Positions 1,464 to 64,000 of a stretch of DNA of 64,000 bases are shown here, piece by piece. The DNA is from an uncultured bacterium. Its GTDB lineage: Bacteria; Patescibacteriota; Minisyncoccia; UBA6257; 2-01-FULL-56-20. Location: NCBI GenBank assembly GCA_963844965.1, contig CAWJQC010000004.1, positions 41,609 to 105,608 on the forward strand, read 5' to 3'. The position numbers and the translations under genes are program-made. The notes below the pieces were generated by a model. That model saw only the letters and a list, made by a program, of their open reading frames with translations, was not told the DNA's origin and ran no database searches. The stretch's first letter is position 1. Every line of letters starts with the position of its first letter.

Positions 1464-1495
1464 AAAAACGCCCCGTTCATCGGGGTATTTTTGTT
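1464..1495. terminator. bidirectional intrinsic terminator
   Basis: aaaaaCGCCCCGttcatCGGGGtattttt: a GC stem flanked by an A-run and a T-run, lying between the convergent mgtC-like gene and rnpB. Confidence 0.7.
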
Positions 1496-7907: not shown

Positions 7908-8027
7908 GGAATCAGAAAGTAGAAGGTAGAAAATAGAATTTAGAACATAGAACTGAGGGCGCGGAGAGAACAATCCTCAAAATTCCACACAGGAAATCTT
8001 AGCAGAAAACCGGTTTTCGCGCAAATC

Positions 8028-14509: not shown

Positions 14510-14512
14510 TTT

Positions 14513-14608
14513 TAGAAAATAGTAAGTAGAAATTAGAAAATAGAATTTTGTCGGGATTTTCGGCGAAGTTCCGATTTCTATTTTCTATTTACTATTTTCT
14601 ACTTTCTA
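14513..14608. repeat. AT-rich low-complexity inverted repeat / bidirectional terminator hairpin (TAGAAA-word family)
   Basis: TAGAAAATAGTAAGTAGAAATTAGAAAATAGAA ... TTCTATTTTCTATTTACTATTTTCTA lies between convergent dnaE and the cytidylyltransferase gene. Related word repeats occur in many intergenic gaps. Confidence 0.6.
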
Positions 14609-15006
14609 TCTACGATATTGCTTTTATATCTATGCGGCTCGTGCGCCCTCAAAACAACCATCTTCGGCCGCCAACGAAATTCCTTGCGGTGATTTTTCAG
14701 GTCCTCTTTGAGCGCCACCTGGTCGTAACCCAAAGCGATAACGTCGGGCTTGTGCTTTTTCACGACCTCGTAAACGCCGAGTTCAGCGTCGCCGAGCGCG
14801 ACCTCGTCAACAAGAGGTTCTTTTCGCAGGTCGTCAATTCTCCGCGCGAGATTTCTCTGCGGCAGACGGCCCTTCAAGTACTCAGCCGTATGGTCCTGCG
14901 CGACTGCGACGAGCAAATAATGGCCGTATTCCCTGGCTTGTTTAAAAAATTGACGGTGACCTTCATGGATGCCGTCAAAAACGCCGAAGACCAGAACTTT
15001 TTTCAT
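14599..15006 (-). CDS. cytidylyltransferase-like (HxGH) nucleotidyltransferase
   Basis: MKKVLVFGVFDGIHEGHRQFFKQAR carries the GxFDxxHxGH nucleotidyltransferase motif, as in the RibL/TagD-like family. 135 aa. Confidence 0.6.
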   Translation of the reverse strand: MKKVLVFGVFDGIHEGHRQFFKQAREYGHYLLVAVAQDHTAEYLKGRLPQRNLARRIDDLRKEPLVDEVALGDAELGVYEVVKKHKPDVIALGYDQVALKEDLKNHRKEFRWRPKMVVLRAHEPHRYKSNIVDRK

Positions 15007-15068
15007 GTATCACGCAACATGAAACATGTAGCAGTTAAAACGGTGCTACATGTTTCGTGTTATATGTT

Positions 15069-16517: not shown

Positions 16518-16617
16518 TAGATTAATTATGCCCCATTATCAATCAAAATTCAAAATCGGGATAACATAAAAAGCTGTTTTTGCCGACAGGCTAAAACACC
16601 TTATATCCAAAAGAATT

Positions 16618-16748
16618 GAGTGGCGTTTCTTGGGAAACCCGCAGCCGATTTAGCTAGGTCTTTGCCGAAAGGCAAAGTAAATCGGCGAGGACAAGTCGAA
16701 TTTGCCGCCGGAGCAAATTCGACGGGTTCCCAAGAAATCTCGCCGCTC
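16618..16748 (-). other. 131-nt three-helix structured element (ncRNA, leader or palindromic element) between greA and lysS
   Basis: The outer stem is GAGTGGCG-TTTCTTGGGAAACCCG / CGGGTTCCCAAGAAAtctCGCCGCTC. It encloses two near-perfect hairpins: CCGATTTA..CTTTGCCgaaaGGCAAAG..TAAATCGG and GTCGAATTTGCcgccggaGCAAATTCGAC. Confidence 0.5.
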
Positions 16749-18144: not shown

Positions 18145-18232
18145 AATAGAAAATAGAATTTAGAAAGTAGAAAGTAGTAGGTAGTAGGAAGAAAAAACTG
18201 AAAATTTCTAAATTCTAATTTCTGATTTCTAA
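18145..18232. repeat. AT-rich low-complexity inverted repeat (TAGAAA/GTAGTAG words)
   Basis: AGAAAATAGAATTTAGAAAGTAGAAAGTAGTAGGTAGTAGG ... TTTCTAAATTCTAATTTCTGATTTCTA lies between the GT2 gene and map. Confidence 0.5.
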
Positions 18233-32012: not shown

Positions 32013-32564
32013 CTATTTTCTATTTTCTATTTTCTGTACTTCCAAAATCCCTCCCCTCGCTCCGGGAACCGCTCCCTTTATAAAAAGCAATCCGTTCTCT
32101 TTATCAACGCCGGCGACCTTCAAATTTTTTACCGTCACGCGCTCGTCGCCCATGTGGCCGGCCATGCGGTGGCCCGGCGTAACCCGCTGGGGCGCGGTGC
32201 TGCCGATGGAACCGCCGGCGCGGAAACGGTTTTTCTGTCCGTGTGTTTTCGGTCCGCCGGCGAAACCATGGCGCTTGACGACACCAGCAAAGCCACGTCC
32301 CTTCATCGTGCCCGACACGCGCACCACATCACCTTCCTTGAAAGCATCAACCTCTATTGCGTCACCAACTTTAAATTTCTCGCTTTCGGTTCTGAATTCC
32401 CGCTTTTGCTTTCCGAGAGCGAGCTGAACGGCTTCATATCCGTCCCGTTCGTTAGTGCGAACAAAAGTTACCTTATTCGGCTGCGCGCGAAGCACCGTCA
32501 CGGGCACGACGGTTTTGTCCTTCCAAATCTGGGTCATCTTCAATTTTTTCGCCAGGATAAACAT
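32013..32564 (-). CDS. rplC: 50S ribosomal protein L3
   Basis: VTVLRAQPNKVTFVRTNERDGYEAVQL...SGTMKGRGFAGVVKRHGFAGGPKTHGQ. Confidence 0.95.
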   Translation of the reverse strand: MFILAKKLKMTQIWKDKTVVPVTVLRAQPNKVTFVRTNERDGYEAVQLALGKQKREFRTESEKFKVGDAIEVDAFKEGDVVRVSGTMKGRGFAGVVKRHGFAGGPKTHGQKNRFRAGGSIGSTAPQRVTPGHRMAGHMGDERVTVKNLKVAGVDKENGLLFIKGAVPGARGGILEVQKIENRK

Positions 32565-38949: not shown

Positions 38950-40132
38950 CCGCTCCTGCGCCGACCGTCTTGCCGCCTTCGCGGATGGCAAAACGCTGTT
39001 TTTCTTCAAGCGCGACCGGGAAATGAGTTTCACGGTGAGTTTAACGGTGTCGCCCGGCATGACCATTTCCATGCCTGCCGGCAAGGGTCACTTCGCCCGT
39101 AACATCGGTCGTCCTGATATAGAACTGCGGCTTGTAGCCGTTGAAGAACGGCGAGTGGCGGCCGCCTTCCTCTTTTGAAAGCACGTAAACCTCGCGCTCG
39201 AATTCCGTGTGCGGCGTGACGCTGCCCGGCTTCGCGACAACCTGCCCGCGCTCCACGTCTTCTTTCTTCAGGCCGCGGAGCAGAACGCCGACGTTGTCGC
39301 CCGCCATGCCTTCGTCCAAGAGTCTTATTGAACATTTCAATGCCCGTGACGACGGTCTTCTGCCGTCGGCCTGCAGGCCGACGATCTCCACTTCTTCGTT
39401 CACTTTCACCTTGCCGCGCTCCACGCGGCCGGTCACGACCGTGCCGCGTCCTTCAATCGAGAAGATGTCTTCGATCGGCATAAGGAACGGCTTGTCGAAG
39501 TCGCGGACCGGATCGGGAATGAATGTCATCCACCGCTTTGATAAGGTCCAAGATCGGTTTCGCGTCCGGGTCGTCGGCGATTTCGCGGCCAACGCTTTCA
39601 AAGCCGAACCGCGGATGATCGGAGTCGTGTCGCCCGGGAATTCGTATTTCTTCAAAAGCTCGCGGACTTCGGACTCAACGAGATCAATGAGTTCCGGATC
39701 GTCCACCTGATCGCACTTATTAAGAAACACGACGATGGTCGGCACGCCGACCTGGCGGGCAAGCAAAATGTGCTCGCGCGTCTGCGGCATCGGGCCGTCG
39801 GTCGCGGCGACGACCAAAATCGCGCCGTCCATCTGCGCGGCGCCCGTGATCATGTTCTTGATATAGTCGGCGTGTCCCGGCGCGTCAATGTGCGCGTAGT
39901 GGCGCTTCTCGGATTCGTACTCCGAATGGTGCAGGGCGATCGTGATGCCGCGCGCCTTTTCCTCCGGAGCGTTGTCAATTTGGTCCACTCTCTCTTCTTT
40001 CTTCGTCAGACCCTTCAAATGCAAAACGTGCATAATCGCGGCGGTCAGGGTCGTCTTGCCGTGGTCAACGTGGCCGATCGTGCCGATGTTCATGTGCGGC
40101 TTGGCCCGGTAGAATTTTTCTTTTTCAGCCAT
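38950..40132 (-). CDS. tuf: elongation factor Tu, with four apparent single-base indels
   Basis: The N-terminus is canonical ([53 protein letters not shown]). A compensating pair near 39515-39527 and 39585-39600 scrambles [21 protein letters not shown]. Two more, near 39075-39085 and 39015-39020, break the C-terminus (..[20 protein letters not shown] / [29 protein letters not shown]). Confidence 0.88.
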
Positions 40133-41436: not shown

Positions 41437-43541
41437 TTACCGTTTTTTGCCTTCGATAATCAACTGCGCAATGTTCTGCGGCACTGGCTCATAATGGTCA
41501 AATTCCATCGTGAACGCTCCCCTGCCTTGCGTCATGGAACGCAACTCGGTCGCGTAGCCGAACATTTCCGCGAGCGGAACTTTGGCGTCAATCACTTTCA
41601 CGTTGGGCCGGTCGGAAATTTCCTCAATCCTGCCGCGCTTGGAGTTCAAGTTGCCGCTCACCTCGCCCAAAAATTCTATCGGGATGATAACCTGAAGCTT
41701 CATTATCGGCTCCAATATGACCGGCTTCGCGCGCTTCGCCGCTTCCTGCAGGGCGATGGAGCCAGCAATTTTGAAAGCCGCCTCCGACGAGTCAACTTCA
41801 TGGAAAGAGCCGTCATAGAGCGAAACTTCAAGGTCGGTCATCGGGTAGTGGGCAACGACCCCCTTACTCAATGCTTCCACCACACCTTTTTCCACCGCCG
41901 GGATGAATTCGTTCGGAATGATCCCTCCCTGATATCGTCTATGAAAACAAATCCCTTGCCGCGCTCCAAGGACTTCACGCGCAGCCAGACATGTCCGTAT
42001 TGTCCGCGGCCGCCGGATTGCCTGATATATTTGCCTTCCGCCTCCGCTTCGCCCATAATCGTTTCTTTATAGGCAACCTGCGGCCGCCCCACCGAACCCT
42101 CAACACCGAACTCCCGCTTCATCCTGTCAACAATAATTTCCAGGTGCAACTCGCCCATGCCAGAAATAATCGTCTCGCCAGTTTCCAGGTCGCCCGCCAC
42201 GCGGAAAGTCGGGTCTTCTTCCGCCAAGCGGTGCAGGGCAATGCTCATTTTTTCCTGGTCGGCTTTCGTCTTCGGCTCAATGCGAATGCCGATCACCGGC
42301 TCGGGGAATATGATCTTCTCAAGCACTATCGGCGCGTCGGGACTGCAAAGCGTGTCGCCGGTCGTCGTATTCTTCAAACCGACGATCGCCGCGATATCTC
42401 CGGCATGCACTTCCTCCATTTCTTCGCGGTGGTTGGCGTGCATCCGCACCACGCGGCCGACACGTTCCTGCTGGTCCTTCTTGGAATTCAAAACGTACGT
42501 GCCGCGCTTCAAAACGCCGGAATAATTCCGGAAATAGGTTAAAGTGCCGACGTACGGGTCTGTCGCAACCTTGAAAGCCAGCGCCGAGAACGGCTCTTCG
42601 TCCTTGGGGTGCCGCACGATATCGGCGCCGCTCTTCGGGTCAATGCCCTTAACCGGAGGAAGGTCCGTCGGCGCGGGCAAATATTCCACAACCGAGTCAA
42701 GCATAAATTGCACGCCTTTGTTTTTCAGGGCCGAACCGCAAAGCACCGGCACAATTTTGTTGGCAATAACGGCTTTGCGCAAAACGCGGCGCAAATCTTC
42801 AATGTCAAGCTCAGTACCATCCAAATACTTGGTCATCAAGGCATCGTCATTGTCCACAATGCGTTCCACAAGTTCATGCCGCGCCTTCTTCACGTGCACT
42901 TTCATATTTTCCGGCATCGGAATTTCTGTAATCTTTTCGCCATGTTCACCCTCCGAGCCGTACGCCTTTTCGGTTAAGAGGTCTATCATTCCCACGAATT
43001 CACCCTCAAGGCCGATGTTCAACTGCAAAGGCAGTGCGTTCGGCGTGAGCCGTTCTTTGATTGACTGCAAACTTTTTTCAAAGCTCGCACCCAAGCGGTC
43101 AAGTTTGTTAATAAAGCAAATCCGCGGCACGTGGTACTCATCGGCATAGCGCCAGTTCGTTTCCGACTGCGGCTCAACACCTGCGACGCCATCAAAGACG
43201 ACAACCGCGCCGTCCAAAACGCGGAGCGAACGCTTCACCTCCACCGTAAAGTCAATGTGCCCCGGCGTGTCAATCAAATTTATCATATGCTCAAATTTTT
43301 TGTCGCCCTTGCGGTAAGTCGGAATCCAGAACGCCGTCGTTGCGGCGGAAGTAATCGTAATTCCCCTCTCACGTTCCTGCTCCATCCAATCCATCACCGT
43401 GTCGCCCGTGTGCACCTCGCCGATTTTGTGACTGACGCCCGTATAAAAAAGCACCCGTTCGCTCACGGTGGTTTTGCCGGCATCTATATGGGCGATGATG
43501 CCGATGTTACGGACCTTCTCGACAGGATACATTCTAGGCAT
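41437..43541 (-). CDS. fusA: elongation factor G, split by one frameshift near 41920-41933
   Basis: [35 protein letters not shown]. At ..FIDDIR the frame slips; adding one G in atcaGGGaGGGatc restores [30 protein letters not shown], which joins the two track ORFs. Confidence 0.9.
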
Positions 43542-46221: not shown

Positions 46222-46294
46222 GTCCCTGTAGCTCAACGGATAGAGCGTGTGGCTTCGAACCACAAGGTTGCAGGTTCAAATCCTGCCAGGGACG
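46222..46294 (+). tRNA. tRNA-Arg (anticodon TCG)
   Basis: GTCCCTGTAGCTCAACGGATAGAGCGTGTGGCTTCGAACCACAAGGTTGCAGGTTCAAATCCTGCCAGGGACG, with loop CTTCGAA. It is bracketed by the perfect inverted repeat CCCTCCCACCTTTG / CAAAGGTGGGAGGG. Confidence 0.9.
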
Positions 46295-46321
46295 CAAAGG
46301 TGGGAGGGTGAAGATATCATA

Positions 46322-46367
46322 TGTGGCTTCGAACCACAGGTTCCAGGTTCGAGTCCTGGCGAGGGCA
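46322..46367 (+). pseudogene. 3' fragment of a different tRNA-Arg(TCG) (anticodon arm to acceptor 3' strand)
   Basis: TGTGGCTTCGAACCACA is identical to the anticodon arm of the neighbouring gene. It is followed by a different T-arm (CCAGGTTCGAGTCCTGG) and acceptor strand (CGAGGGC). There is no 5' acceptor or D-arm. Confidence 0.7.
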
Positions 46368-46464
46368 CACACAACATTTCGTATCGCGGCATCGTGGGGG
46401 CCGACGCTCTAGCGCGACCCCGAGAGGCCTACCGATACGGAATATCGTCCTCCTTATTTCTCTA

Positions 46465-46832
46465 TTAAGAGCCGGCAAAAATACTTTTGATAAGGCTTGT
46501 AATGCCGCCTGCTATCAGCACGATCACAAAACCGACTGCCGCATACGTAAGGGTCTTCTTCCCTTTCGAAAATTTTTCAGGATCGCCAGCCGCCGTCATC
46601 ATTTGAAACCCGCCGACAAGCACCATTATACTTGTGAGCGGCGCTGCAATATCGTAAAAAAGAAATCCCGCCACACTATTCGCGACGGACACCAAGCTGC
46701 CCCCCCATTCGTACAATTTGGATCGAACGGATTAAAAAGTTGGTTGGGAGGGCACGCGGCAAAAGCTAACTTCGCGACGGTTAAGGCGCTGACTGTTATT
46801 AAAATCTTTGTTGTGCGGCGGATAATATGCAT
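46465..46832 (-). CDS. small two-TM pilin-like protein (TrbC/VirB2-like T4SS-pilin type seen in CPR), frameshifted in a C7/G7 run at ~46697-46705
   Basis: A signal-like N-terminus (MHIIRRTTKILITVSALTVAKLAFA) is in one frame. SLVSVANSVAGFLFYDIAAPLTSIMVLVGGFQMMTAAGDPEKFSKGKKTLTYAAVGFVIVLIAGGI is in the next. The family assignment is from memory of the pattern. Confidence 0.45.
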
Positions 46833-46883
46833 ATGGATTATTATAGCATACGAGATAGCGTGGCAGAAGCCCATTTTGTTTAG

Positions 46884-48221
46884 CTATTTCTGCAAGCTCA
46901 GAATTTTATTCCTGAACGTCAACTTACTCTTGAAGCAAGATAGCAATTCGCGTTTCTCGACCGTGCTGCCCTTTTTGAGAAGATATTTTGCGTACGTTTT
47001 AAGGTCAATTTCTTTAGTGGCCGCTTTCGATCCTTCTCCCAAGACATCGTTCGCGAATTTGCGATATCGTTCCATCTCGTCTTCGAATTTCTTCTGCATC
47101 CCAATCTCACTGATATCCATCTCGTCAATGATAGCGAGAAGTTGAGCGATCAATTCCTCTTCGCGAATGTATCCGCACTTGCAATCCTTATCTTTCGAGC
47201 GTGAGCATCCATAGTACACGTACCGCGCCGTCGTTCCATCCTTGTGCGCCTTATATTTCTCGCACGCACTGATGCCCGATCCGCATAGGCCGCACGAGAT
47301 CAGTTTCGTAAACGAAAATTCCTTTATCTCCGACCTGATGACAAAATCTCGGTGCAGCTGCTCCTGTACTTTATCGAACAGCTCCCGCGAAATGATTGCT
47401 TCGTGCTTGCCGCTGTACCAGTTACCGCTCTTCAGTGGATACTCAAAGATGCCGCAGTAAAATGGATTTTTGAGGATGATATAAATATTGGATAACGAAA
47501 GCACTTTCCCATTCTTTGTTCTGAATTTGATTTCCGACTTCAGCCAATGATAAAGCTTCCGGCCCGACCATTGTTCGTCGGCGACTTTCTGGAGCATTTG
47601 CTTGATGACGGGCGCTCGCAGGGGATCAATGATAACTTCACAAGGACGGTCGGTGCTCTTCTCGTTAAGATACCCTGTCGGTGCGATAGACGGACGCAAA
47701 CCTTGTTCGCACCGCATCCGTAATCCGCGCTTCACGTTTTCCGATTTGTTATCATTCTCAAGTTTCGCTTGGCTGCACAAAATCATCAACATGAATTTCT
47801 CGCTCGGCGAGTTCGTGAATTTCTGGCTGAAGGTTCTGATCTCGATAAGTAATTTTTGATCCATCAAGTCCACCAAGCCGCCAAGGTCGCCCGCGTTGCG
47901 GCTCAAGCGATCCGGCGCCCATGTAAGGATACCGTTGAATTCGCCGGAACGAATATCAATAAGCAACTCGTTAAAAATTTTTCGCTGGCCGACAGCTTTT
48001 GCGGAATGGCTTTCCTTTCTAACTTCGGCGATCTCAAGGTTATCGCGCTCGGCGATTTTCAGCATCTCCTTTATCTGACTATCAATGGAAAGCACTTGCT
48101 GTTCCTCGCTCTCCGTACTTTTCCTCGCATAGAGGCAGTATTTTATTTTTATCGCTTCGGCCTTTGTCGCAGAAACGCCCGACTGATCCCAGCCCTTTGG
48201 TATATTTGTTATTTTCTCCAT
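46884..48221 (-). CDS. large serine recombinase (resolvase domain, recombinase domain, zinc ribbon)
   Basis: YCLYARKSTESEEQQVLSIDSQ (catalytic Ser region), LTWAPDRLSRN, later CGLCGSGISAC...YYGCSR. About 445 aa from MEKITNIPKGW. Confidence 0.85.
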   Translation of the reverse strand: MEKITNIPKGWDQSGVSATKAEAIKIKYCLYARKSTESEEQQVLSIDSQIKEMLKIAERDNLEIAEVRKESHSAKAVGQRKIFNELLIDIRSGEFNGILTWAPDRLSRNAGDLGGLVDLMDQKLLIEIRTFSQKFTNSPSEKFMLMILCSQAKLENDNKSENVKRGLRMRCEQGLRPSIAPTGYLNEKSTDRPCEVIIDPLRAPVIKQMLQKVADEQWSGRKLYHWLKSEIKFRTKNGKVLSLSNIYIILKNPFYCGIFEYPLKSGNWYSGKHEAIISRELFDKVQEQLHRDFVIRSEIKEFSFTKLISCGLCGSGISACEKYKAHKDGTTARYVYYGCSRSKDKDCKCGYIREEELIAQLLAIIDEMDISEIGMQKKFEDEMERYRKFANDVLGEGSKAATKEIDLKTYAKYLLKKGSTVEKRELLSCFKSKLTFRNKILSLQK

Positions 48222-48377
48222 ACCTAAGGGATGCCGCAACGGCGGAAGGAGTCCAGAGCATCCTTGTCGGTAACTCAAAACTCGATATCAGGCGACGAAG
48301 GGGCAAAGAAGGCAAGCAGAGTGATTTCCCCAGCCACCCTCTTTAAGACCATTTATAAACGAGCTATAATAATTCTA

Positions 48378-53623: not shown

Positions 53624-56305
53624 ATGAGTGGGATAAAAATAAATCTTTCTCTCAGCGAAATCCCAGGCATCGGCCCGCGTTTTCTGGAACGGCTGGGAAA
53701 ACTCGGCATAAAAACCGTCCGTGATCTCATTTATCATTTTCCGGCCCGCTACGAGGATTTCTCCCAGATATACAAAATTTCCGACGTTGAGCCGGGGGAA
53801 CAGGTAACAATACGTGGCGTTGTTGAAGACACCAAACTGCGGCGGACTTGGAGAAAACACATGACAATCGCCGAAGCCCTGATCCGCGACGATTCCGGAA
53901 CGATACGCGCCATCTGGTTCAACCAACCATATGTTTTGAACACTCTGCGGGTCGGGCGCACGGCGAATTTCGCAGGCAAAATATCCATATCGGACGAGGA
54001 CGAAATTTATTTGAGCCACCCGGCTTATGAAATCGTCGGCAGTCGGGAGTCGGGAACGGAGAAGCAAGAAACAAAACATACAGCGCGGCTCGTCCCCATT
54101 TATCCCGAAACGCGCGGCCTCACATCCAAGGGGTTGAGATATCTGATCCAGCCAATTCTGAAAAACAGCGAACAGCTGGAGGAATGGCTGCCGCCGGAAG
54201 TTCTGCGCGAAAATAATTTTCCCGAAATAAACCTTGCGCTCAGATCCATACACTTCCCCGAAAAAACCGAGGATGCTCTTGTCGCGAAAAAACGCTTCAC
54301 TTTTGAAAACCTGTTCCTGCTGCAACTCGCCAATCTTGAACAAAAATTGAAACTCGCGCGCGAAAAAGCGCCAGTGATCAAAACCGACATAGAACACCTG
54401 AAAAAAATGATCTCGGAACTGCCATACGAACTCACGTTTTCGCAAAAGAAATCATTGTGGGAAATCATCCAGGACCTCGCCAAAAAACAGCCGATGAACC
54501 GCCTGCTCCAGGGCGACGTGGGCTCCGGCAAGACGGTTGTCGCGGCGCTCGCCGCGGTAATTACCGCGGAAAACGGGCTGCAGACCGCGTTTATGGCGCC
54601 AACCGAGGTTCTCGCGAGACAGCATTTTGAAACATTGAAAAAATTATTCGCCGGAATTCCCTCGATCCATCAACCCGTAGTTGGGCTTCTCACGTCAAGC
54701 GAAGCAAAAATCCTCTACGCGACAGACCTTGAATCAAAAATCAAAAAACCGGAGTTGCAGGAAAAAATAAAAAACGGCGAGGTAAAAATAGCCATCGGCA
54801 CGCACGCTTTGATACAAAAAGACGTGGCGTTCGGCAATCTTGCCTTTATCATCATTGACGAACAGCATAGATTCGGCGTCTCACAACGAGCTGCGCTCGT
54901 TCGCGGACAGACGCAGAATGATAATACGCGGACAGACGCTGAACAACTACTATACGAAAAAACGACGTTTGAGATAAGAAAAAGTCTGTTTGAGGTGAGA
55001 AAACAACTGGGCCTTGGTCATAAAGAAGTGGTGTATCAGAAAGCATTGGAGGAGGAGTTCAAGAAATCCGGTGTAATATTTGAGAAAGAAAAGAAAATTC
55101 CTGTCGTTTATAACAAGAAAAAGATTGGCGTTTATCAACCGGATTTTGTCATAGATAATGAAGTAATTTTGGAACTTAAGGCTCTTCCCTTTATCGGCGG
55201 CATCGAAAAAAAACAGCTGTGGAATTATTTGAGGGGTTCGGATTACAAACTCGCGCTTATGGCAAACTTTGGACCGGAAAGATTATCCATAGAGCGGGTA
55301 GTATACGATATTGCGCGGAGTCGGCGGCTGTCAGCGTCCGGTCAGCAACTGTCCGCGCCTATCCCCCACCTCCTCTCAATGTCCGCCACGCCAATCCCAC
55401 GCACGCTCATGCTCACCGTCTTCGGCGATTTGGATATATCGCTCATCACCGAACTTCCCGCCGGCAGAAAAAATATCGTAACAAAAATAATCCCCCCACG
55501 GGGCAGGAGCGAAGCCTATGAATTCATCCGCGGCGAAGTGAGGGCCAGCCGGCAGGTTTTTGTCATCTGCCCCCGCATTGACAAACCGCAGACAGGCGCA
55601 GACCACACGCAGACAAACGCAGACAAGACACAGACAGACGCAGACAATTTTCAGCGGCTGTCTGCGTCAAGTCAGCGACTGTCCGCGTTAAGTCCACGTA
55701 AGTCCGCGTTAGTGTGGGAAGTAAGATCCGTGAAAGAAGAATTTGAAAAATTATCCAAGAAAATTTTTCCGGATTTGCGCGTCGCCATGCTCCACGGCCA
55801 GCTCAAGCCAAAAGAAAAAGCGGGTATCATGAAGGACTTCCGCAACTACAAAATAGATATTCTCGTTTCAACTTCCGTCGTGGAAGTTGGCGTGGACGTG
55901 CCGAACGCAACAATAATGATGATTGAAGGCGCCGATCGCTTCGGGCTGGCTCAGATCTACCAATTCCGCGGACGCGTGGGGCGCGGCGAACACCAATCCT
56001 ATTGCTTCCTGTTCACGGATTCGTCCGCCAAAACTACGCGCGAGCGGCTGCAGGCCGTCCTTGAAGCCAAGAACGGCTTTGAGCTCGCCGAGAAGGACCT
56101 GAAGATCCGCGGTCCCGGCGAATTCCTCGGCACGGCGCAGACCGGCTTTCCCGACACGGCGATGAGCGGCCTCATGAACCCGGAGCTCGTGAAAGCAAGC
56201 CGCGAAGCGGCGGCAAAAATCGTCCAAAAAGATCCGCTTTTCAAAAATTATCCGCTCCTGAAAACCAAATTAAACGAGTTCCGGAAGGAAATCCACTTGG
56301 AGTAG
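53624..56305 (+). CDS. recG: ATP-dependent DNA helicase RecG carrying two in-frame insertions
   Basis: Wedge/OB N-terminus; motif I GDVGSGKT; motif II [11 protein letters not shown]; motif III [9 protein letters not shown]; later [15 protein letters not shown] and QFRGRVGRG. 893 aa against ~680-700 expected. The excess is accounted for by 54908-55357 and 55589-55708. Confidence 0.92.
   Translation: [893 protein letters not shown]
54908..55357 (+). other. 450-nt in-frame insertion in recG encoding a GxxExxY-family (PD-(D/E)XK-like) domain flanked by inverted word repeats
   Basis: [87 protein letters not shown] matches the GxxExxY pattern. The flanks are cgcggacagacgcagaat..tacgcggacagacgctga and the reverse-complement-like ctgtcagcgtccg..ctgtccgcgc. 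Confidence 0.75.
55589..55708 (+). repeat. 120-nt in-frame palindromic insertion in recG (solo copy of the same word-repeat arms)
   Basis: cagacaggcgcagaccacacgcagacaaacgcagacaagacacagacagacgcagaca attttca gcggctgtctgcgtcaagtcagcgactgtccgcg. It translates as [40 protein letters not shown]. Confidence 0.7.
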
Positions 56306-56571: not shown

Positions 56572-59017
56572 CTACTGCTCCATATGACCGACAAGGGTGC
56601 ATGTATAAAAGTTACCAGTGCATTGGGATGAATTAGTAACATCCCAACAAGTTGAATAAGTCTCCAGCGCGCCACTACAAGGAGTGGTATTAGCGCATGA
56701 ACTGTTGTAGTAACGAATATAAGTCATATACTGCGGGCAGAAGTAAATCGGCGTCCCGCCTGTAACTTTAAGAGTGCCGGGAATGATGACGTTGCCGTTT
56801 GCTAGAACCTGTATAGCTGCTCCGGTTGTAGTAGCTGTACCAGTATTCGGCATACTGCCGCCAATACCGACGTTGCCGGCATAGTTGATGACTAATTTAT
56901 TTGATTCTGCCGCACTAGGATAATTTCCCACCATAAGCATGGCGCCCTGATTAACATCGCCCACATCGAGCAGCACCGCATCCGCATTGGTCGTAGCCGC
57001 GGTGCCGTAGAACGTGCCGGTATTGGTATCCCTGTTCTGCTCGAACTGGGTGCCGTAATCACCGGTGTTATACAAGAACGAATAGGTGGGATTACTAAAA
57101 TCGCTGTACATCTCAAGGCCGGGGCCGGTACCGGCAGTATTTGAATATGCATAAAATTGATAGTTGGCGGGCGCCGCCGCTCCCACCCCGATTCCGGAGG
57201 TGAATAAACCTCCTCCAGTTACCGTCAGTTTCTGGGTCGGCGCCGTATTCCCGATGCCGACGTTGCCGGAGGAATTCCAAATACCGGTGCCAGGCATCGT
57301 AACGTTGCCAGTAAAGGTCGGGCTCGCTAAAAGCGCCGCTCCGGTAACCTGCGCTACCCCGTAGTCACCAGATGCCGCCACCACGGCTCCGGTTCCGCCA
57401 AATACCGAGGTGACGCCGCCGCTCGGCCAAGCCGTGATGCAATTCGCCCCGGAGATGCAATATTGAGTGGCGTTTGCGGTAACCGTTGACGTACAGAGCG
57501 TACCCTCCGCCTGAGTTTGTGAAATACCCACCGTAGCCGCCGGAGTTGGTGGCTAATCCATAAACTCCTACGCCGTTACCTGCCGCTGACTGTCCGGCAA
57601 CCCCTACCCAGTAAGAAGCGCCGACCTGTCCGCCGAGAATCCCATTCGTTGTGGCGTTGCTATTATTTCCCGTTACCGAGCCGACCCATGATGAATTGAC
57701 GGCGCTCGTGAAACTGCCTACGCCAGCAACAACCAACGGATATGCCGGCGTCGTCGTCCCGATGCCGACGTTGCCGTTCGTGATGGAGAAATATGGACCA
57801 CCCCCCATCCCAGTGCCAAGCGCCAAATTGAGGCCATAAGATTGTGACGTCAAATCAGCGTATGTAAATGCTCCGTTGCTGGTGGTGAACTTTATCCAAT
57901 CTACGTTTGACCCGTTTGTATTGTCTAGCCGTAAGGTAGACGTACTTCCACTCTGAATATCAAGTTTTGCGACCGGCGCCGTGTTCCCGATGCCGACGTT
58001 GCCGTTGTTATTTATAAACAAGGCGGGTGACGCGCCGGATGAGTCAGAACCCTGAGTCAAAAAGGCCATTGGAGAACCGTTACTGCCGATCCGGGCCCAG
58101 TTCGCAACTGCTGCCGGTCCAAGCTGTAGCAAGGCATCGGTACCGTTAGATGTCAAGTCAAACTTGGCGAATTTTGACCCGTTCACGACATGCAACGTCG
58201 TTGCCGGCGACGCCGTCCCGATGCCGACGTTGCCGCCATATGCAAGCGTCATTATTTGGGAGTACCAACTGCTGGGGTTCTGATACCCAATCGTCAAGAC
58301 CGAATTATCTGACGCTGGTGCAAAAACATACCCATTATTACTGCCAGCCATATCGCGGAGCTTGAAGGCTCCAAAGACATCAAGTGTATTTTGTGGTGAC
58401 GGCGTCCCGATGCCGACCGAGCCCGAGAAATACCCGCCGCCGTAGACGGAGAGGGCCTGCGGCAAGTTGCTGGCGGAGGATGTGGTAACGCCCAGAGCGG
58501 AAGAAACAAACACACTGTGGGGGAACCCGTAGGGAACGCCGGAATCGGCCTCTAGAGAATTGAACACCGCGGGCGTGACATAGCCGGCGTTGACGGTCCC
58601 GTTAAAATTGCCGTGGATCGTGCCGTTCACGTCAAGCTGGTAGCCAGGCGACGCCGTCCCGATGCCGACAGAACCGTCATTGCGCACGACAAGTATGGGC
58701 GACGAATTCGGATAAAGGATCTTCAATGTGTAATTCGCGGCATCAGCGGACGAAGAAGCAACGATGAGGAGTTTGGTTTCCGGCAGAGGCGTGGGCGTAC
58801 CAACGCCCAGATTCCCAGCCGCATTAGTGCTTACCGCTCCCGAACCGAAACCGGGGGTGGGAGGAGGAGAGGCAAACGCGTAGTAGGTAGTAGGTAGTAG
58901 GTAGTAGGTAGTAGCGAGAATGACGAAAAACAAAACGTGCGGCGCAAAACTCGGACGCACACCGTAAAACTTGCGGCGGAGCTTTTGCTGTTTTTGGAAC
59001 AAATCTGCGTCCATCAT
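56572..59017 (-). CDS. large secreted tail-fibre-like repeat protein (GNVGIG repeats), split by one frameshift near 57525-57540
   Basis: About 815 aa when ORFs 57365..59017 and 56572..57531 are joined (..GGGYALYVNGY / GISQTQAEGTLCTS..). The motif NGNVGIG(T/N)(A/T)(S/A)P recurs. It has an N-terminal hydrophobic segment and a Cys-rich C-terminus. Confidence 0.6.
58880..58914. repeat. heptanucleotide tandem repeat (GTAGTAG)x5 inside the 5' coding region of the tail-fibre-like gene
   Basis: gtagtaggtagtaggtagtaggtagtaggtagtag encodes ..ATTYYLLPTTYY.. on the minus strand. An inverted partner (TACTACC x3.5) lies at 59025-59049, upstream of the ATG at 59017. Confidence 0.8.
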
Positions 59018-59186
59018 AATAATTTACTACCTACTACCTACTACCTACCGCTTTTAATTGTTTCGGGGCGACAATCTCATAGCTTTATTATATAAGAACA
59101 GGGAAAGATATGTAGAAAGGGGTGTGCATAGGCGCGAAAACTGCCCGAGCGGCGGCCGCAAATTTCCCGGCCATCCGGGATATAAA

Positions 59187-59235
59187 AAAGGCTCTCGCGA
59201 GGAATTGCGAATTGCGAATCCTCACGAGAGCCAAA
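59187..59235 (-). terminator. intrinsic terminator after the 59252..59959 gene
   Basis: The minus strand reads GGCTCTCGTGAGGAttcgcaattcgcaatTCCTCGCGAGAGCCTTTTTTAT. Confidence 0.7.
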
Positions 59236-59251
59236 CATACCGGAGGGGAAT

Positions 59252-59959
59252 CTAGTGGCCGACGATGGGTGGAAGACCGGCCTGGTAGCGGCGGTAATTC
59301 CCCATGTACCGGTCCGCCACCTGAATATTCCGCACGCCGTACCAAACGTGAACCGTGCTAAGGTAACCGGCAAAGCCGATGCTTGCGAGACGCTCGGCCC
59401 TCACCATTCTCCTGCCCCACTTATGTCCCCCCCATTTATGCTCTGTCCAGCGAGGGATAGCCGAAGAAAAGTAGGAAAAAACGACATCGAACGCCGAGGC
59501 GCTCCCTAACACCCCAGCAATATTGCGATTGCCAAATTGGGTATATAGGGAGTCCGTCTCACGGGGGCCCTGCTGGCTAGCATAACGCAAACCGTTGCTA
59601 GCGACGTACTCTGGAATAAAGGGTGGCGTAGAGAGGGAACGGAACGTGGTTATGTTGTCAAACGCAAATGGCCCGCGCTCAACACCCCACATCCAAGCCT
59701 GTGTCCTCTCAAGCTTGCTCTGGTCCCGGTTTAACTTGCCGCCAGGCCAAGCCATAACCCTAAACACCTTATCAAAGGTTGATGGCTCAACCGGTGCCGC
59801 CGAACGCAAGGGCGAGATAGCGGGTGCGAGTGCCGGTGCAGACGCGGCGGATGCCGCCACGGGCGTTGACGCTAAGGGCAGTTCGGTAAGACCGTCTGCC
59901 GGAAACGCGCGAACCGAAATGATTGTCAAGATTGTCAACAAAAGCACCAGTCGCTTCAT
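59252..59959 (-). CDS. hypothetical secreted protein
   Basis: MKRLVLLLTILTIISVRAFPA is a signal peptide, followed by an Ala/Pro-rich linker. No family recognised. Confidence 0.5.
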   Translation of the reverse strand: MKRLVLLLTILTIISVRAFPADGLTELPLASTPVAASAASAPALAPAISPLRSAAPVEPSTFDKVFRVMAWPGGKLNRDQSKLERTQAWMWGVERGPFAFDNITTFRSLSTPPFIPEYVASNGLRYASQQGPRETDSLYTQFGNRNIAGVLGSASAFDVVFSYFSSAIPRWTEHKWGGHKWGRRMVRAERLASIGFAGYLSTVHVWYGVRNIQVADRYMGNYRRYQAGLPPIVGH

Positions 59960-60178
59960 AACGACCTCCTCAAAAAGATTTAATTTAATTGCGCAAAGCA
60001 ATTTGGCTACTCCCAAGAATAACCAAATCGCTTTGCGCAAGCAATATATTCATTTTTCAAGATACTTGCCTATCTATGCTAATTATAGCACAAATAAACA
60101 ACCTGTCAACCCCCACCTTTTTCCGAAAAGGTGGGGGTCAAGTGGCCGCGGCGGCTGACCCGCTGAAGCGACGATACC

Positions 60179-60438
60179 CTACAACTCATAAATCTCATCT
60201 CGCTTGCCTATTTTGAGTATATAAATTGCGCCATTTCTAACGTCAAATACCAACCTATAATCGCCCACGCGAAATCTGAACTCCCCGCCGCGGTTGTCAG
60301 CCAAACGCTTGGCAAACCTCAACGGATTATCCTCTGACGCATAAATGCGCATCTTCTTTGCTTTGCGATGCGCACTTGAACTTCTCTCGGCAGGGATTCC
60401 AACTGCTTAGCCGCCCGCTTGGCATAGAAAATCTTCGT
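60179..60438 (-). pseudogene. decayed copy of the RelE/ParE toxin gene
   Basis: About 97% identical by eye to 62204..62458, but the start ATG is mutated to ACG (cgt at 60436-60438) and a 5-nt insertion (ctttgctttgcg versus cttcgcg) shifts the frame. Confidence 0.7.
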
Positions 60439-60614
60439 TACAATCCCAACTTCTTAAACAGCTTATCCTGCGATATAGTTTTTTTTGCCTTGATTTCTTT
60501 TCTCGCTTCGCGGACATCCAAAATATGCGCGAGGTAGCCAAGCAGGGCGCCGAAGCGAGCATCCGTTTTCCTCAAACGCTCGTATTCTTGTTTTGGTATA
60601 GTAACCGTGGTCAT
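60438..60614 (-). CDS. antitoxin (copy 1) of the RelE/ParE pair, intact
   Basis: MTTVTIPKQEYERLRKTDARFGALLGYLAHILDVREARKEIKAKKTISQDKLFKKLGL, identical in protein to copy 2. Confidence 0.6.
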   Translation of the reverse strand: MTTVTIPKQEYERLRKTDARFGALLGYLAHILDVREARKEIKAKKTISQDKLFKKLGL

Positions 60615-60737
60615 ATAAGTGCATTATAGTAAACCGGCGGCGGATATCAACCCCCACACCAAACGAGGACTTTCCGGGTCCCGCGCCGAAGGCGCATGTC
60701 CTCGTTAGGATTCTCGATAGGAATTGCCGGTGCGACA

Positions 60738-60956
60738 TTACAACAGAGAAACAAACTGCTCCGGTGCAAGTTCGGCATCACGTAGTATTTTGCGAAGCAG
60801 AGAAACATCCACTGCCTTATAGTTCGGCACCGTTACGGATTTCTTGCCGGGACAGGACAAACGAATATGGCTGCCGCGCTGGCGAACTTCGCGATAACCG
60901 AACTTTGCCAAAGCAGAAATAATCTTGCGGCCGGAGATAACAGGCAGTTTAGACAT
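60738..60956 (-). CDS. hicA: HicA-family mRNA-interferase toxin
   Basis: 72 aa; ISGRKIISALAKFGYREVRQRGSHIRL... is the YcfA/HicA pattern. It lies downstream of a HicB-like gene. Confidence 0.7.
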   Translation of the reverse strand: MSKLPVISGRKIISALAKFGYREVRQRGSHIRLSCPGKKSVTVPNYKAVDVSLLRKILRDAELAPEQFVSLL

Positions 60957-60962
60957 GACGAG

Positions 60963-61214
60963 CTATACGGCAATTGTATGTAAGCTGATTTCCTGCGGCT
61001 TGTAATCCTGCAAAATTTGCCTGGACTGCTTTTCTTCCAAAATAAGCATTATAACCTCTCGGATATTGCGGAGCGCCTCGTCAATCGTCTTGCCCTGCGC
61101 ATAACATCCTTCAAAAACAGGGCATTCAACAACATAAAACCCGCTCTCTCCTTTTTCGGCGAGGAGCGGCAATTGCCGGCCGCGGCCTATAAATTTTGCT
61201 CTTGTTCTTGCCAT
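60963..61214 (-). CDS. hicB: HicB-family antitoxin (UPF0150 fold)
   Basis: GFYVVECPVFEGCYAQGKTIDEALRNIREVIMLILEE is the typical HicB N-domain motif. Confidence 0.7.
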   Translation of the reverse strand: MARTRAKFIGRGRQLPLLAEKGESGFYVVECPVFEGCYAQGKTIDEALRNIREVIMLILEEKQSRQILQDYKPQEISLHTIAV

Positions 61215-61493
61215 AGTGAAATAATACCACAACCCTTTAGGCGGTCAAGTGAAATTGGTAGCCAAAATCGCCCTGCCACACTAAAACCCCTTTAAATTCT
61301 TCCAGCAAGCAAACTGCCCGCGCTTTTCCGCGCGGGCTTTTTTTAAATCCCCGCTGAATACCCAGCCGAGACGTGGCGGAGACGAAACAGTGAGATATCT
61401 TTCTTTCCTCGCTTCGCAAGAAATCTTGCCGTTCCTCCGCGAGCCAATATCTACGGCCCCCGGCTGGAGGGATGAAATGAAATGGACGCTCAA

Positions 61494-61688
61494 CTATTTC
61501 TGTTTAATCTCTCTAATACCGAGGTCCCGGCAGATTTTCTTTGCCAAAAATTCATTGATTTCGCTATGGCGGGGCACCGTAGACGAACGTCTGACTTTGG
61601 GGTTAAAAAAGACGCTGTGCTTGGCGCCTTCCCGAACAAAAACACACCCCTCATGCTCAATGTGGCAAATTAAAACAACTCGCTTCAT
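61494..61688 (-). CDS. hicA: HicA-family toxin (second pair)
   Basis: 64 aa; REGAKHSVFFNPKVRRSSTVPRHSEINEFLAKKICRDLGI matches the HicA pattern (GSHxxf......tvPrH.eI...l...I.k.lgi). Confidence 0.65.
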   Translation of the reverse strand: MKRVVLICHIEHEGCVFVREGAKHSVFFNPKVRRSSTVPRHSEINEFLAKKICRDLGIREIKQK

Positions 61689-61691
61689 TCA

Positions 61692-61916
61692 TCAAACTGT
61701 AAGCAGCTGCCGCGTCAACTTCTGTTTGCCGGCCTCGGCATCAGCCAGCGCCCGGTTGGTTTCCAAAATTAGCCGAAGCGCTTCTTTAAGATTTTCTTTT
61801 ACTTCCTTCACGCTTTTCCCTTGAGTATTTACCCCGGGCACTTCCTCTATCCAGCCGACATACCATTTACCGCTTTTTTTAAACACGGCTGTAAATTTGT
61901 ATTTCATGACTGCCAT
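61692..61916 (-). CDS. hicB: HicB-family antitoxin (second pair)
   Basis: MKYKFTAVFKKSGKWYVGWIEEVPGVNTQGKSVKEVKENLKEALRLILE. Confidence 0.65.
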   Translation of the reverse strand: MAVMKYKFTAVFKKSGKWYVGWIEEVPGVNTQGKSVKEVKENLKEALRLILETNRALADAEAGKQKLTRQLLTV

Positions 61917-62203
61917 ACATTTAAGATAATCCCAAAGCATGTAGCTGTCAACTCCTCTCAACTCCCGAGAAAACCCAGATGGCGAGCTTCTCCCTGCCTC
62001 GATAGGGTAGAAAAACAACTCAAACAGCCCAACGAAATTCGTTGGGCTGGATTTTTTTAACCAATGGCGTCACCCGCCGTTGAATTCCTTAATATCTTTT
62101 GGCGAACACCGTTTAAACTACCTGTCAACCCCCACCTTTTTTCCGAAAAGGCGGGGGTCAAGCGGCCGCGGCGGCTGACCCGCTGAGCTGAAGCGACGAT
62201 ACC

Positions 62204-62458
62204 CTACAACTCATAAATCTCATCTCGCTTGCCTATTTTGAGTATATAAATTGCGCCATTTCTAACGTCAAATACCAACCTATAATCGCCCACGCGAAAT
62301 CTGAACTCCCCGCCGCGGTTATCAGCCAAACGCTTGGCAAACCTCAACGGATTATCCTCTGACGCATAAAAGCGCATCTTCTTCGCGATGCGCATTTGAA
62401 CTTCTCTCGGCAGGGATTCCAACCGCTTAGCCGCCCGCTTGGCATAGAAAATCTTCAT
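62204..62458 (-). CDS. RelE/ParE-family toxin (intact copy)
   Basis: 84 aa; ...GGEFRFRVGDYRLVFDVRNGAIYILKIGKRDEIYEL is the typical RelE/ParE C-terminal pattern. Its ATG overlaps the antitoxin stop (TAATG). Confidence 0.75.
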   Translation of the reverse strand: MKIFYAKRAAKRLESLPREVQMRIAKKMRFYASEDNPLRFAKRLADNRGGEFRFRVGDYRLVFDVRNGAIYILKIGKRDEIYEL

Positions 62459-62634
62459 TACAATCCCAACTTCTTAAACAGCTTATCCTGCGATATAGTT
62501 TTTTTTGCCTTGATTTCTTTTCTCGCTTCGCGGACATCCAAAATATGCGCGAGGTAGCCAAGCAGGGCGCCGAAGCGAGCATCCGTTTTCCTCAAACGCT
62601 CGTATTCTTGTTTTGGTATAGTAACCGTGGTCAT
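62458..62634 (-). CDS. antitoxin (copy 2) of the RelE/ParE pair
   Basis: 58 aa, the same sequence as copy 1, translationally coupled to the toxin. Confidence 0.6.
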   Translation of the reverse strand: MTTVTIPKQEYERLRKTDARFGALLGYLAHILDVREARKEIKAKKTISQDKLFKKLGL

Positions 62635-62678
62635 ATTAAGTGCATTATAGCAAACCGGCGGCGGATGTCAACCCCCAC

Positions 62679-62738
62679 ACCAAACGAGGACGCGCGCCTT
62701 CGGCGCAGGACCCGGAAAGTCCTCGTTTGGTGTGGGGG
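62679..62738. repeat. 20-bp perfect-stem hairpin (CCCCCACACCAAACGAGGAC ... GTCCTCGTTTGGTGTGGGGG)
   Basis: A perfect inverted repeat around a 28-nt loop. The loop is present in the opposite orientation in the copy-1 region (60671-60697). Confidence 0.8.
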
Positions 62739-62946
62739 TAAATTATGCCGAAAAAGCCGGAAGGAAAGATGCGATCTATGTTTCTCCCGCAAGAATACCC
62801 CCGCCGCAGGCGGGGGATGAATTGCGGTTCGAGAAACATAAACCCCGCCGATGGCGGGGTGAACTACCACCTAACATGCTGCATGTGCTAAGTATTTCGT
62901 GCGCAGCACGGCAGTTGAGATACCACCGCTGTGAGGCGGTGGTAGT

Positions 62947-64000
62947 TCATTTCAGAAGAGCGTCAACTTTTTCTTGGAGCGCGGCGTTCTGCGCCTGAAG
63001 AGCGCTGATCTCTTGTTGCTGCTCCTTGATGGATTCTATCATCGGCGCGATAAGCCCAGTATAATCCAGACCAAGGGTTCCGCTCGCGTCAGTTTCCACC
63101 AACTGCGGGAAAACCGTCTGTACATTCTGCGCGGTTAAACCGAGCTGCTCTCCACTGCCCATCAGTTTTGTATCTTTCCATTCAAAGGAAACCGGCGTCA
63201 GTAACTCAAGCTCCGCAAGCGAACCCGACAGTGGAACTATATTCTTCTTCAAACGCTCGTCGGAGCTATTTATCCACTGCCCAGCATTGTTTGTATACTC
63301 GCCGTGGGCTCCCTGAAAGTCATACGTACTGCCGGAACCATAGACGCCGATTGCAGCAGTTGAAAACACCCCATACCCTGCGGGATTACCGAAGTATCCA
63401 GCGGAACCGTTCGCGCCCGCGGTATCCGAATATCCTTCCACCCCAACCCCAGTACCAGCGTTGTAGCCATAGACGGCGGGAAGACCATTACCAGTACCGT
63501 AGCCATAGACCCCATACCCAGTCGCACCAGCAGTGCCATAGACACCATACATAGAGCCGGTGCCATAAATCCCTGCCCCAGCTTGCCCGGCGCCACCGAC
63601 GCTTAATGTTGACGCCGGTGCCGTCGTCCCGATGCCGACGTTGCCGTTCGTGATGGAGAAATATGGACCACCCCCCATCCCAGTGCCAAGCGCCAAATTG
63701 AGGCCATAAGATTGTGACGTCAAATCAGCGTATGTAAATGCTCCGTTGCTGGTGGTGAACTTTATCCAATCTACGTTTGACCCGTTTGTTTTGTCTAGCC
63801 GTAAGGTAGACGTACTTCCACTCTGAATATCAAGTTTTGCGACCGGCGCCGTGTTCCCGATGCCGACGTTGCCGTTCGTGATGGAGAAATATGGACCACC
63901 CCCCATCCCAGTGCCAAGCGCCAAATTGAGGCCATAAGATTGTGACGTCAAATCAGCGTATGTAAATGCTCCGTTGCTGGTGGTGAACTTTATCCAATCT
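62947..64000 (-). CDS. tail-fibre-like repeat protein with a C-terminal intramolecular chaperone (Peptidase_S74 / endosialidase-chaperone) domain; N-terminus beyond the right window edge
   Basis: The C-terminus reads SSDERLKKNIVPLSGSLAELELLTPVSFEWKD...LGLTAQNVQTVFPQLV...LDYTGLIAPMIESIKEQQQEISALQAQNAAL, the S74 chaperone domain plus coiled coil. Upstream are 76-aa tandem repeats containing GNVGIG. Confidence 0.75.
   Translation of the reverse strand, partial: DWIKFTTSNGAFTYADLTSQSYGLNLALGTGMGGGPYFSITNGNVGIGNTAPVAKLDIQSGSTSTLRLDKTNGSNVDWIKFTTSNGAFTYADLTSQSYGLNLALGTGMGGGPYFSITNGNVGIGTTAPASTLSVGGAGQAGAGIYGTGSMYGVYGTAGATGYGVYGYGTGNGLPAVYGYNAGTGVGVEGYSDTAGANGSAGYFGNPAGYGVFSTAAIGVYGSGSTYDFQGAHGEYTNNAGQWINSSDERLKKNIVPLSGSLAELELLTPVSFEWKDTKLMGSGEQLGLTAQNVQTVFPQLVETDASGTLGLDYTGLIAPMIESIKEQQQEISALQAQNAALQEKVDALLK
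63628..64000. repeat. 228-bp (76-codon) tandem coding repeat, at least 1.6 copies in the window
   Basis: cccgatgccgacgttgccgttcgtgatggagaaatatggacc... restarts at 63628 and at 63856 and is near-identical. The same ~255 bp block occurs at 57752-58006 in the paralog. Confidence 0.85.

Follow-up and report, generated by a model that had tools for sequence, protein, structure and literature searches.

A pair of candidate phage-tail-fibre-like surface fibre genes in a Patescibacteria bacterium, with one stalk unit almost identical between the paralogs

Introduction

The closest described relatives of the two fibre genes analyzed here, which lie at the right-hand end of a 64,000-nucleotide stretch of DNA from an uncultured bacterium (assembly GCA_963844965.1, contig CAWJQC010000004.1, positions 41,609 to 105,608; this whole stretch is referred to as the window), are the mosaic adhesive trimer (MAT) fibres of Bdellovibrio bacteriovorus, which are trimeric, phage-tail-fibre-like surface adhesins (Caulton et al. 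2024, Nat Microbiol, PMC10769870). A MAT protein starts with a signal peptide, continues with a conserved β-rich N-terminal domain of ~130 amino acids and with β-helix segments capped by a loop motif, and ends in a self-cleaving S74 domain in 13 genes or in another type of tip (NS74) in 8; paralogs have stalk sequence in common while their tips are swapped, and the authors state that such proteins occur in other bacteria too (PMC10769870). Structures have been reported for Bd2133 (PDB 8OND), Bd3182 (8ONC) and Bd1334 (8OML). A further parallel is provided by the Periscope proteins, whose stalks are reported to be encoded by DNA-identical tandem repeats with copy number and length varying by recombination (Whelan et al. 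2021, PNAS, PMC8201768); these proteins have another fold, occur in other taxa (Gram-positive SHIRT and related domains) and form monomeric rods.

The two genes of the window fit the MAT family, one as an S74 and one as an NS74 member, matched on stalk units, loop motif and ends, and there is a good probability that they are chromosomal genes of a candidate phyla radiation (CPR) bacterium that encode secreted, phage-tail-fibre-like surface fibres of the MAT kind. As in Bdellovibrio, the proteins appear to be cellular secreted fibres with stalk units bounded by G-N-(V/L)-G-(I/L)-G-x-x-x-P-x-x-x-L, S74 (SDxxxK) members stand beside members with other tips, and the paralogs combine a common stalk with differing tips. 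The differences concern the host, a small-genome CPR bacterium whereas Bdellovibrio is a predator; the length, typically ~1,000 amino acids in Bdellovibrio MATs and less in the window proteins; the left-hand tip, which is short, Cys-rich and without relatives; a heptanucleotide repeat in the signal-peptide coding region; and one unit shared by both genes at 99.6% identity that is also tandemly amplified. The domain, the fibre family (since 2024) and the mosaic mode of evolution are already described, and the locus is not a new kind of system. An earlier account made from the letters of the window (the sequence-only reading) had taken the genes to encode fibre proteins, which our analysis supports, and had missed the 2024 description of the family.

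A life spent attached to other cells is generally assumed for CPR bacteria (Patescibacteria), and to our knowledge few of the molecules mediating this attachment have been identified. The locus provides concrete candidate host-attachment genes, with an exchange of modules between paralogs visible at the DNA level, in a CPR bacterium that carries both the S74 and the non-S74 subtype of a phage-derived family used by Bdellovibrio for prey recognition.

The right-hand gene and its S74 domain

The right-hand gene has the following parts:

62947-64000, minus strand: right fibre gene, 3′ part (350 codons and stop), with the 5′ end beyond the window
63283-63597, minus strand: Gly/Tyr-rich segment with GxYGVYG-type repeats, linking the last unit to the chaperone domain
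62950-63282, minus strand: intramolecular chaperone/Peptidase_S74 domain and C-terminal coiled-coil helix
62921-62944, strand unassigned: palindromic G+C-rich, terminator-like hairpin directly after the stop codon (consensus scan only)

The frame is uninterrupted between 63999 and the stop codon at 62947-62949. The 350 visible amino acids begin with part of a unit, which is followed by a complete unit, a Gly/Tyr-rich stretch and a C-terminal domain starting with NSSDERLKKNI. The sequence-only reading had recognized that the repeat runs out of the window, while the minus-strand orientation and the truncation of the gene at its 5′ end had escaped it.

The C-terminal domain belongs to Peptidase_S74, as proposed earlier. 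In the profile search, Pfam PF13884 matched residues 246-301 with 54.9 bits (cutoff 22; E=1.1e-14) over profile positions 1-57 of 58; the S-D-x-x-x-K motif is present as S246-D-E-R-L-K251, and the two catalytic residues, Ser246 (codon 63262-63264) and Lys251 (codon 63247-63249), are invariant in an alignment of 101 homologues. The domain occupies the last 111 residues of the protein, after the fibre stalk, with a helix at 313-349, and the AlphaFold2 (AF2) model has predicted local distance difference test (pLDDT) values of 96-98 over residues 250-350. Foldseek matched it with probability 1.00 to MyRF ICA 7DC3 (TM-target 0.6), endoNF IMC 3GW6 and 3GUD, so that Pfam, catalytic dyad, AF2 and Foldseek agree. 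By analogy we infer trimerization-dependent self-cleavage, in which the chaperone would nucleate trimerization of the fibre and then cut itself off at Ser246 by means of the Ser246/Lys251 dyad. The Gly/Tyr-rich segment, a region of low monomer pLDDT, is presumed to form a trimeric β-helix stalk.

Phage fibres and tailspikes with a chaperone (K1F endosialidase 3GW6, T5 pb1 4UW8, GA-1 neck appendage 3GUD, T4 gp37-type 6F45; PF13884) have a homologous C-terminal domain that carries the Ser/Lys dyad and is likewise placed behind the stalk. Sequence matches of the right-hand protein in the PDB were the phage fibres 8JOV and 6F45, and it is matched by many PHROG tail-fibre families (phrog_1980, for example, spans residues 37-348), some of which reach into the stalk units. 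The 235 matching GenBank phages align with the last ~150 residues only, i.e. with the S74 part and not with the units. The window genes differ from the phage proteins in that no virion module was found near them and that the left-hand paralog carries a predicted signal peptide.

The left-hand gene and its different tip

The left-hand gene has the following parts:

56572-59017, minus strand: left fibre gene, 814 amino acids with a 1-nt frameshift repaired
57478-57493, minus strand: frameshift site (…YALYVNG / (T)ANATQYCISGANC…), one extra base, probably in 'ggttacc'
58871-59017, minus strand: candidate N-terminal signal peptide or signal anchor (K/R-rich n-region, hydrophobic HVLFFVILATTYYLLPTTYYAFA, AFA|S)
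57265-57414, minus strand: conserved linker VTSVFGGTGAVVAASGDY..AQVTGAALLASPTFTGNVTMPGTGIWNSSGNVGIG (consensus VTSVFG.TGAV…GDY…TGAA.LASPTFTG)
56875-57264, minus strand: β-rich module of 130 amino acids between two GNVGIG motifs
56575-56751, minus strand: Cys-rich C-terminal tip, 6 Cys in ~55 amino acids
59087-59116, minus strand: sigma-70-like promoter candidate (TCTACA-18-TATAAT; consensus scan only)

As assembled, the gene consists of two overlapping open reading frames (ORFs), 57365-59017 (550 amino acids) and 56572-57531 (319 amino acids), and it is deposited as two coding sequences, P0004 (550 amino acids) and P0125 (270 amino acids), on a contig of 216,488 bp. The earlier claim of two fibre-like paralogs stands, with the frameshift in the left one having gone unnoticed. 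Two homologues read across the junction, P0128 with 39.5% identity over 620 columns and P0129 with "LTVNGTTSATAYCINGANCITSWPSGG" against "LYVNG|..ANATQYCISGANCITAWPSGG" in the window, indicating that the left locus is one gene with one extra base. Because tuf and fusA in the same window carry indels too, the frameshift is probably a sequencing error. After repair no stop interrupts the 814 codons, and both halves are otherwise open and conserved.

The repaired protein starts with the candidate signal peptide, continues with eight motif-bounded units, a Gly/Tyr-rich stretch, the linker and the 130-amino-acid β module, and ends in the Cys-rich tail; the units, 47-169 amino acids long, are delimited by copies of the motif G-[NS]-[VL]-G-[IV]-G-x-x-x-P-x-x-x-L, eight in all. 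The signal peptide is predicted from sequence, from hydropathy (Kyte-Doolittle values up to 2.0 in the hydrophobic core) and from the alignment with the classical signal peptide of P0128. The linker is 65-80% identical in many homologues and recurs up to 27 times in giant proteins. The 130-amino-acid module is conserved in ~20 representative proteins and is all-β in the AF2 model (pLDDT 74-93); Foldseek found no significant PDB match for this tip model, the best being the Bd3182 β-helix at a non-significant E=0.02. For the Cys-rich tip, a search among 1.84 billion representatives gave no homologue beyond approximately residue 223 of P0125, and AF2 gave no confident model (pLDDT 33-46). The left-hand protein matches neither S74 nor any other Pfam family.

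One stalk unit common to both genes

The relationship between the two genes is defined by the following elements:

57752-58006, minus strand: near-identical block, left copy (left protein N338-T422)
63622-63876, minus strand: near-identical block, right copy (unit plus flanking NGNVGIG..GNVGIGTT codons)
63646-63873, minus strand: complete 228-bp/76-amino-acid unit of the right gene (GNVGIGNTAPVAKLDI...YFSITN)
63874-64000, minus strand: upstream tandem copy of this unit, with its last 42 codons inside the window

The two 255-bp copies are direct repeats of equal codon phase, offset by 5870 throughout, and, exactly as the sequence-only reading had it, differ at a single position, 57920/63790, where the coding strand has AAT (Asn) on the left and AAA (Lys) on the right. 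The block contains exactly one 76-amino-acid repeat unit and the conserved NGNVGIG(TT) motif at each end, and outside it the identity drops at once to a background of ~25-30%. Sensitive blastn between the genes yielded, besides the block, only motif cores of 23-34 nt, and the right-hand protein is 53% identical to left residues 306-525 over 237 columns. These values are in line with the previously proposed divergence of the rest of the genes and recent gene conversion: with DNA that is otherwise unalignable, proteins that are 53% identical and a single unit that is nearly identical with sharp edges, the genes appear to be old paralogs that exchanged a unit recently.

Within the right-hand gene, the segment 63615-63772 recurs 228 bp further on as 63843-64000. 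The 144 visible nucleotides of the upstream unit body are identical to those of the downstream copy, with the differences confined to junction codons, which bears out the tandem repeat noted earlier; as only ~1.7 copies are visible within the window, fewer than two, the repeat is absent from the Tandem Repeats Finder (TRF) output. A 70-mer of the unit occurs at three exact sites in the window (57832, 63702 and 63930, the last being the next tandem copy) versus 0 expected in shuffles, and a 30-mer from the unit had 0 exact matches in JGI metagenome contigs. The 19-nt coding core of the motif (GGCAACGTCGGCATCGGGA) is exact at six unit boundaries, of which four belong to the left gene and two to the right. 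The same 18-nt codon string is used in 6/7 GNVGIG motifs of the window, and in other genomes the codon choice for GNVGIG tracks each genome's own GC content.

We propose that one whole 76-amino-acid unit was copied between the two genes very recently, with exchange endpoints falling in the conserved motif and the 19-nt cores acting as short identical tracts for gene conversion. The same cores could serve unequal crossing-over, yielding the identical tandem copies of the right-hand gene, the fibre of which would consist of a GNVGIG-bounded β-helix stalk with at least two DNA-identical tandem units followed by the Gly/Tyr-rich segment. Given the shared orientation and codon phase of the 255-bp copies, recombination between them is predicted to remove 5.87 kb and to leave the stalk of the right gene joined in frame to the tip of the left one, a purely geometric consequence of the arrangement. 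Unit-level recombination at the motif core, possibly together with repeat-mediated phase variation, would constitute a testable route of diversification.

Relationship to MAT fibres and other relatives

For the right-hand model, the best Foldseek match was the Bd2133 fibre 8OND, with Bd3182, Bd1334 and Bd2439 lower in the list, and in a phmmer comparison left residues 255-400 aligned with 8OND at E=2.5e-7, GNVGIG being placed on GNVGIG. This unit homology to the Bdellovibrio fibres, whose role as surface adhesins has experimental support, the predicted left-hand signal peptide and the location on a Patescibacteria chromosome favour the earlier suggestion that phage-fibre parts were assembled into cellular fibres. 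The family is common in cellular genomes from many phyla, with relatives in Bacteroidota, Acidobacteriota, Patescibacteria and even one archaeon, many of them under the NCBI name "tail fiber domain-containing protein", and a search of genome contigs returned only distant ones with at most 45% identity.

The same kind of pair is found in a second Paceibacterota genome, the metagenome-assembled genome L001 (JBAYLX010000002.1), where the two members lie 2.8 kb apart:

L001, 9260-10993: S74 member
L001, 13787-15505: Cys-rich non-S74 member

The L001 pair sits among housekeeping genes, its members have an N-terminal 'LAWTEP..APAGNVAAPIN' region in common, and the exact 19-nt GNVGIG core of the window occurs twice in L001. 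In the literature we found nothing specific on S74 or tail-fibre adhesins in Patescibacteria.

Several points weigh against reading the two proteins as MAT-like surface fibres. The comparison with the MAT family, which is defined by its ~130-amino-acid N-terminal domain, covers stalk, motif and ends, and no NCBIfam model matches either protein. The monomer AF2 models of the stalks are of low confidence (pLDDT about 42-86), and for this reason we infer the trimeric β-helix from homology alone; trimeric structure, surface display and a role in host-cell attachment are accordingly put forward here as predictions by analogy. A phage or tailocin module may lie beyond position 64000, where the N-terminus of the right-hand gene also lies, the left-hand gene, frameshifted as assembled, could be a real pseudogene, and an episymbiotic lifestyle of this CPR lineage is an assumption.

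Host, assembly quality and alternative explanations

The gene content of the window includes dnaE, lysS, secY, fusA, tuf, RNase P RNA and five tRNAs, and the best named matches of LysS are from Patescibacteria, Liptonbacteria, Paceibacterota and Parcubacteria at 66-71%; judged by these genes, the host is a Patescibacteria (Paceibacteria-type CPR) bacterium and the locus is chromosomal. Base-level accuracy can be gauged from essential genes. The tuf frame (38990-39100) is shifted at two places separated by ~60 nt, the shifts compensating each other (one g too many in 'cttgccggcagg', and CCC for the needed CCCC), and in fusA (41900-41940) there is one, GGG for the needed GGGG; short G or C runs are the site of the fusA shift and of one of the two tuf shifts, and all are probably indel errors of the assembly, probably from long reads. 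Over window positions 13564-16720, the independent Logan contig ERR10755942_791901 (L043), from the same organism, is 99.9% identical with 2 indels in 3.1 kb, and in that contig lysS is split by an indel absent from the window.

Errors of this kind bear on two alternatives. The left-hand gene might be truly frameshifted, a pseudogene that is decaying or that serves as a silent donor cassette, with only the right-hand gene making a fibre. The frameshift stands in the deposited assembly, where two coding sequences are called, 'ggttacc' is not a long homopolymer, and a nearby ParE copy with a real-looking 5-bp deletion indicates that decay does occur in this island; however, the essential genes tuf and fusA carry like indels in the same assembly and both halves of the gene are conserved and free of stops, which makes the pseudogene unlikely, though not negligible. 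Alternatively, the shared block, the tandem copies or both could stem from repeat mis-assembly or homogenizing consensus polishing. Such an artefact would be compatible with the base-level errors in tuf, fusA and against the Logan contig, with the ability of polishing to render tandem copies identical and with an array that runs past the window edge. Yet both copies are in frame within coherent ORFs, have distinct, sensible flanks and are one substitution apart; a collapse would not place two copies in direct orientation on one contig with 5.9 kb between them; the unit boundaries coincide with a biologically meaningful motif; and the homopolymer-type indels suggest long reads, which would easily span 255 bp. 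We therefore consider an assembly artefact highly improbable.

The remaining alternatives invoke mobile elements. If the genes encoded true tail fibres of a prophage, a tailocin or another phage-derived particle, the matches to PHROG tail-fibre and baseplate families, to the phage fibres 8JOV and 6F45 and, for the C-terminal domain, to 235 GenBank phages would be expected, and a large serine recombinase next to a tRNA-Arg gene 9 kb away, toxin-antitoxin modules between the fibre genes and a right flank beyond the window leave some room for such an element. Against this, the Pfam and PHROG scan of ORFs between ~44 and 62.5 kb, which takes in 12 kb upstream, detected no phage structural protein of any type (capsid, portal, terminase, tail tube, sheath, baseplate), consistent with the earlier observation that no such genes accompany the paralogs; a prophage origin is rejected for this visible side. 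Furthermore, the core gene RecG separates the recombinase from the fibres, the predicted signal peptide of the left-hand protein is a feature that virion fibres do not have, the phages match the S74 part and not the units, the L001 relatives are embedded in housekeeping genes and the Bdellovibrio precedents are cellular, so that a phage particle has very little probability. CPR genomes often carry diversity-generating retroelements (DGRs) targeting surface proteins, and near-identical repeats are a DGR signature, which raises the question of whether the two copies could form a template repeat/variable repeat pair. This origin of the block is ruled out for practical purposes by the lone mismatch, a T versus A difference, and by the same ORF scan, which found no reverse transcriptase; moreover, both copies are coding and in frame, match one entire structural unit that itself recurs in tandem, and belong to the stalk instead of a C-terminal lectin-type tip.

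Heptanucleotide arrays and possible variation of the fibres

A non-triplet repeat lies near the start of the left-hand gene, and period-7 arrays are present elsewhere in the window:

58880-58914, minus strand: perfect (CTACTAC)x5 repeat (TRF: period 7, 5.0 copies, 100% matches)
59025-59048, minus strand: complementary array (GGTAGTA)x3.4, immediately 5′ of the ATG at 59017
7920-7950, 14513-14543/14578-14608, 18147-18184/~18205-18232, 24578-24601/24679-24702 and 32013-32029: period-7 TAG arrays

The perfect repeat corresponds to codons 35-46 of the left-hand gene, inside the signal-peptide coding region, and with a unit of 7 nt, not divisible by 3, the gain or loss of one copy shifts the reading frame. 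It can pair with the complementary array, enclosing the start codon (RNA fold of -68.1 kcal/mol, z = -5.6). In Neisseria opa genes, CTCTT repeats lie in the leader-peptide coding region, and the left-hand gene resembles such simple-sequence-repeat contingency loci in having a perfect non-triplet repeat where the signal peptide of a surface adhesin is encoded, making a phase-variation switch possible. It differs from them in that the heptamer array is seen here at a single length and lies amid genome-wide intergenic period-7 arrays, from which it may derive instead of being a dedicated switch.

Taken at its fullest, variation of the fibres would operate at three levels: slipped-strand mispairing at the heptamer repeat and its leader complement would switch the left-hand fibre on and off, recombination anchored at the 19-nt cores would alter the number of tandem units and hence the stalk length, and recombination between the 255-bp direct repeats would switch tips. 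Such a system, if real, would let the bacterium vary the fibres with which it holds host cells. That the locus is a programmed surface-variation system of a CPR episymbiont combining all three we regard as doubtful.

The period-7 arrays place a TAG every 7 nt, giving stops in all three frames, and are found at gene ends and intergenic sites, mostly as hairpin-capable inverted pairs. The pattern has 15 matches versus 0 expected and is a genome-wide intergenic feature of this organism; similar AT-rich heptamer arrays are present in L001 (18914-18944 and 19021-19052), and the element may be a lineage-typical terminator or 'all-frame stop'. An ORF at 14548-15201, considered as a second heptamer-encoded signal peptide, proved spurious, the real gene there being 14599-15006 on the minus strand.

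Neighbouring genes and other features

The surroundings of the fibre genes contain the following features:

46222-46295: tRNA-Arg, followed by a partial tRNA-like match at 46307-46359
46884-48278, minus strand: large serine recombinase (phrog_95 integrase), adjoining tRNA-Arg
53624-56305, plus strand: RecG with a PD-(D/E)XK (PDDEXK_3) domain inserted between the helicase lobes (residues 447-558)
59252-60040, minus strand: ORF of 262 amino acids with a signal peptide, between the left fibre gene and the toxin-antitoxin island
60110-60670 and 62130-62691: antitoxin-ParE cassette, a direct duplication of 560 bp with 98% identity, between the fibre genes
60738-61232: HicA/HicB, between the ParE copies
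61494-62018: second HicA-like/HicB pair, between the ParE copies

The region from tRNA-Arg to the end of the recombinase (46222-48278) may represent an integrated element, and unannotated ORFs continue from the recombinase to ~51.4 kb. An M48 peptidase was also found among the ORFs scanned. The 262-amino-acid ORF has no Pfam or PHROG match, and a promoter with a 12/12 match to the sigma-70 consensus lies by it at 60109-60082. The antitoxin-ParE duplication has a perfect sigma-70-like promoter and flanking hairpins, and its left ParE copy is truncated by the 5-bp deletion to 57 amino acids versus 84. At the other end of the window, the class A RNase P RNA (1493-1902, minus strand) scores 100.2 against an Rfam gathering threshold of 100, which suggests an RNA that is divergent, error-laden or insertion-bearing. 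Within RecG, tandem repeats of 10, 21 and 31 nt at 55580-55694 encode low-complexity 'TQTNADKTQTDADN…QRLSASSQRLSA' segments.

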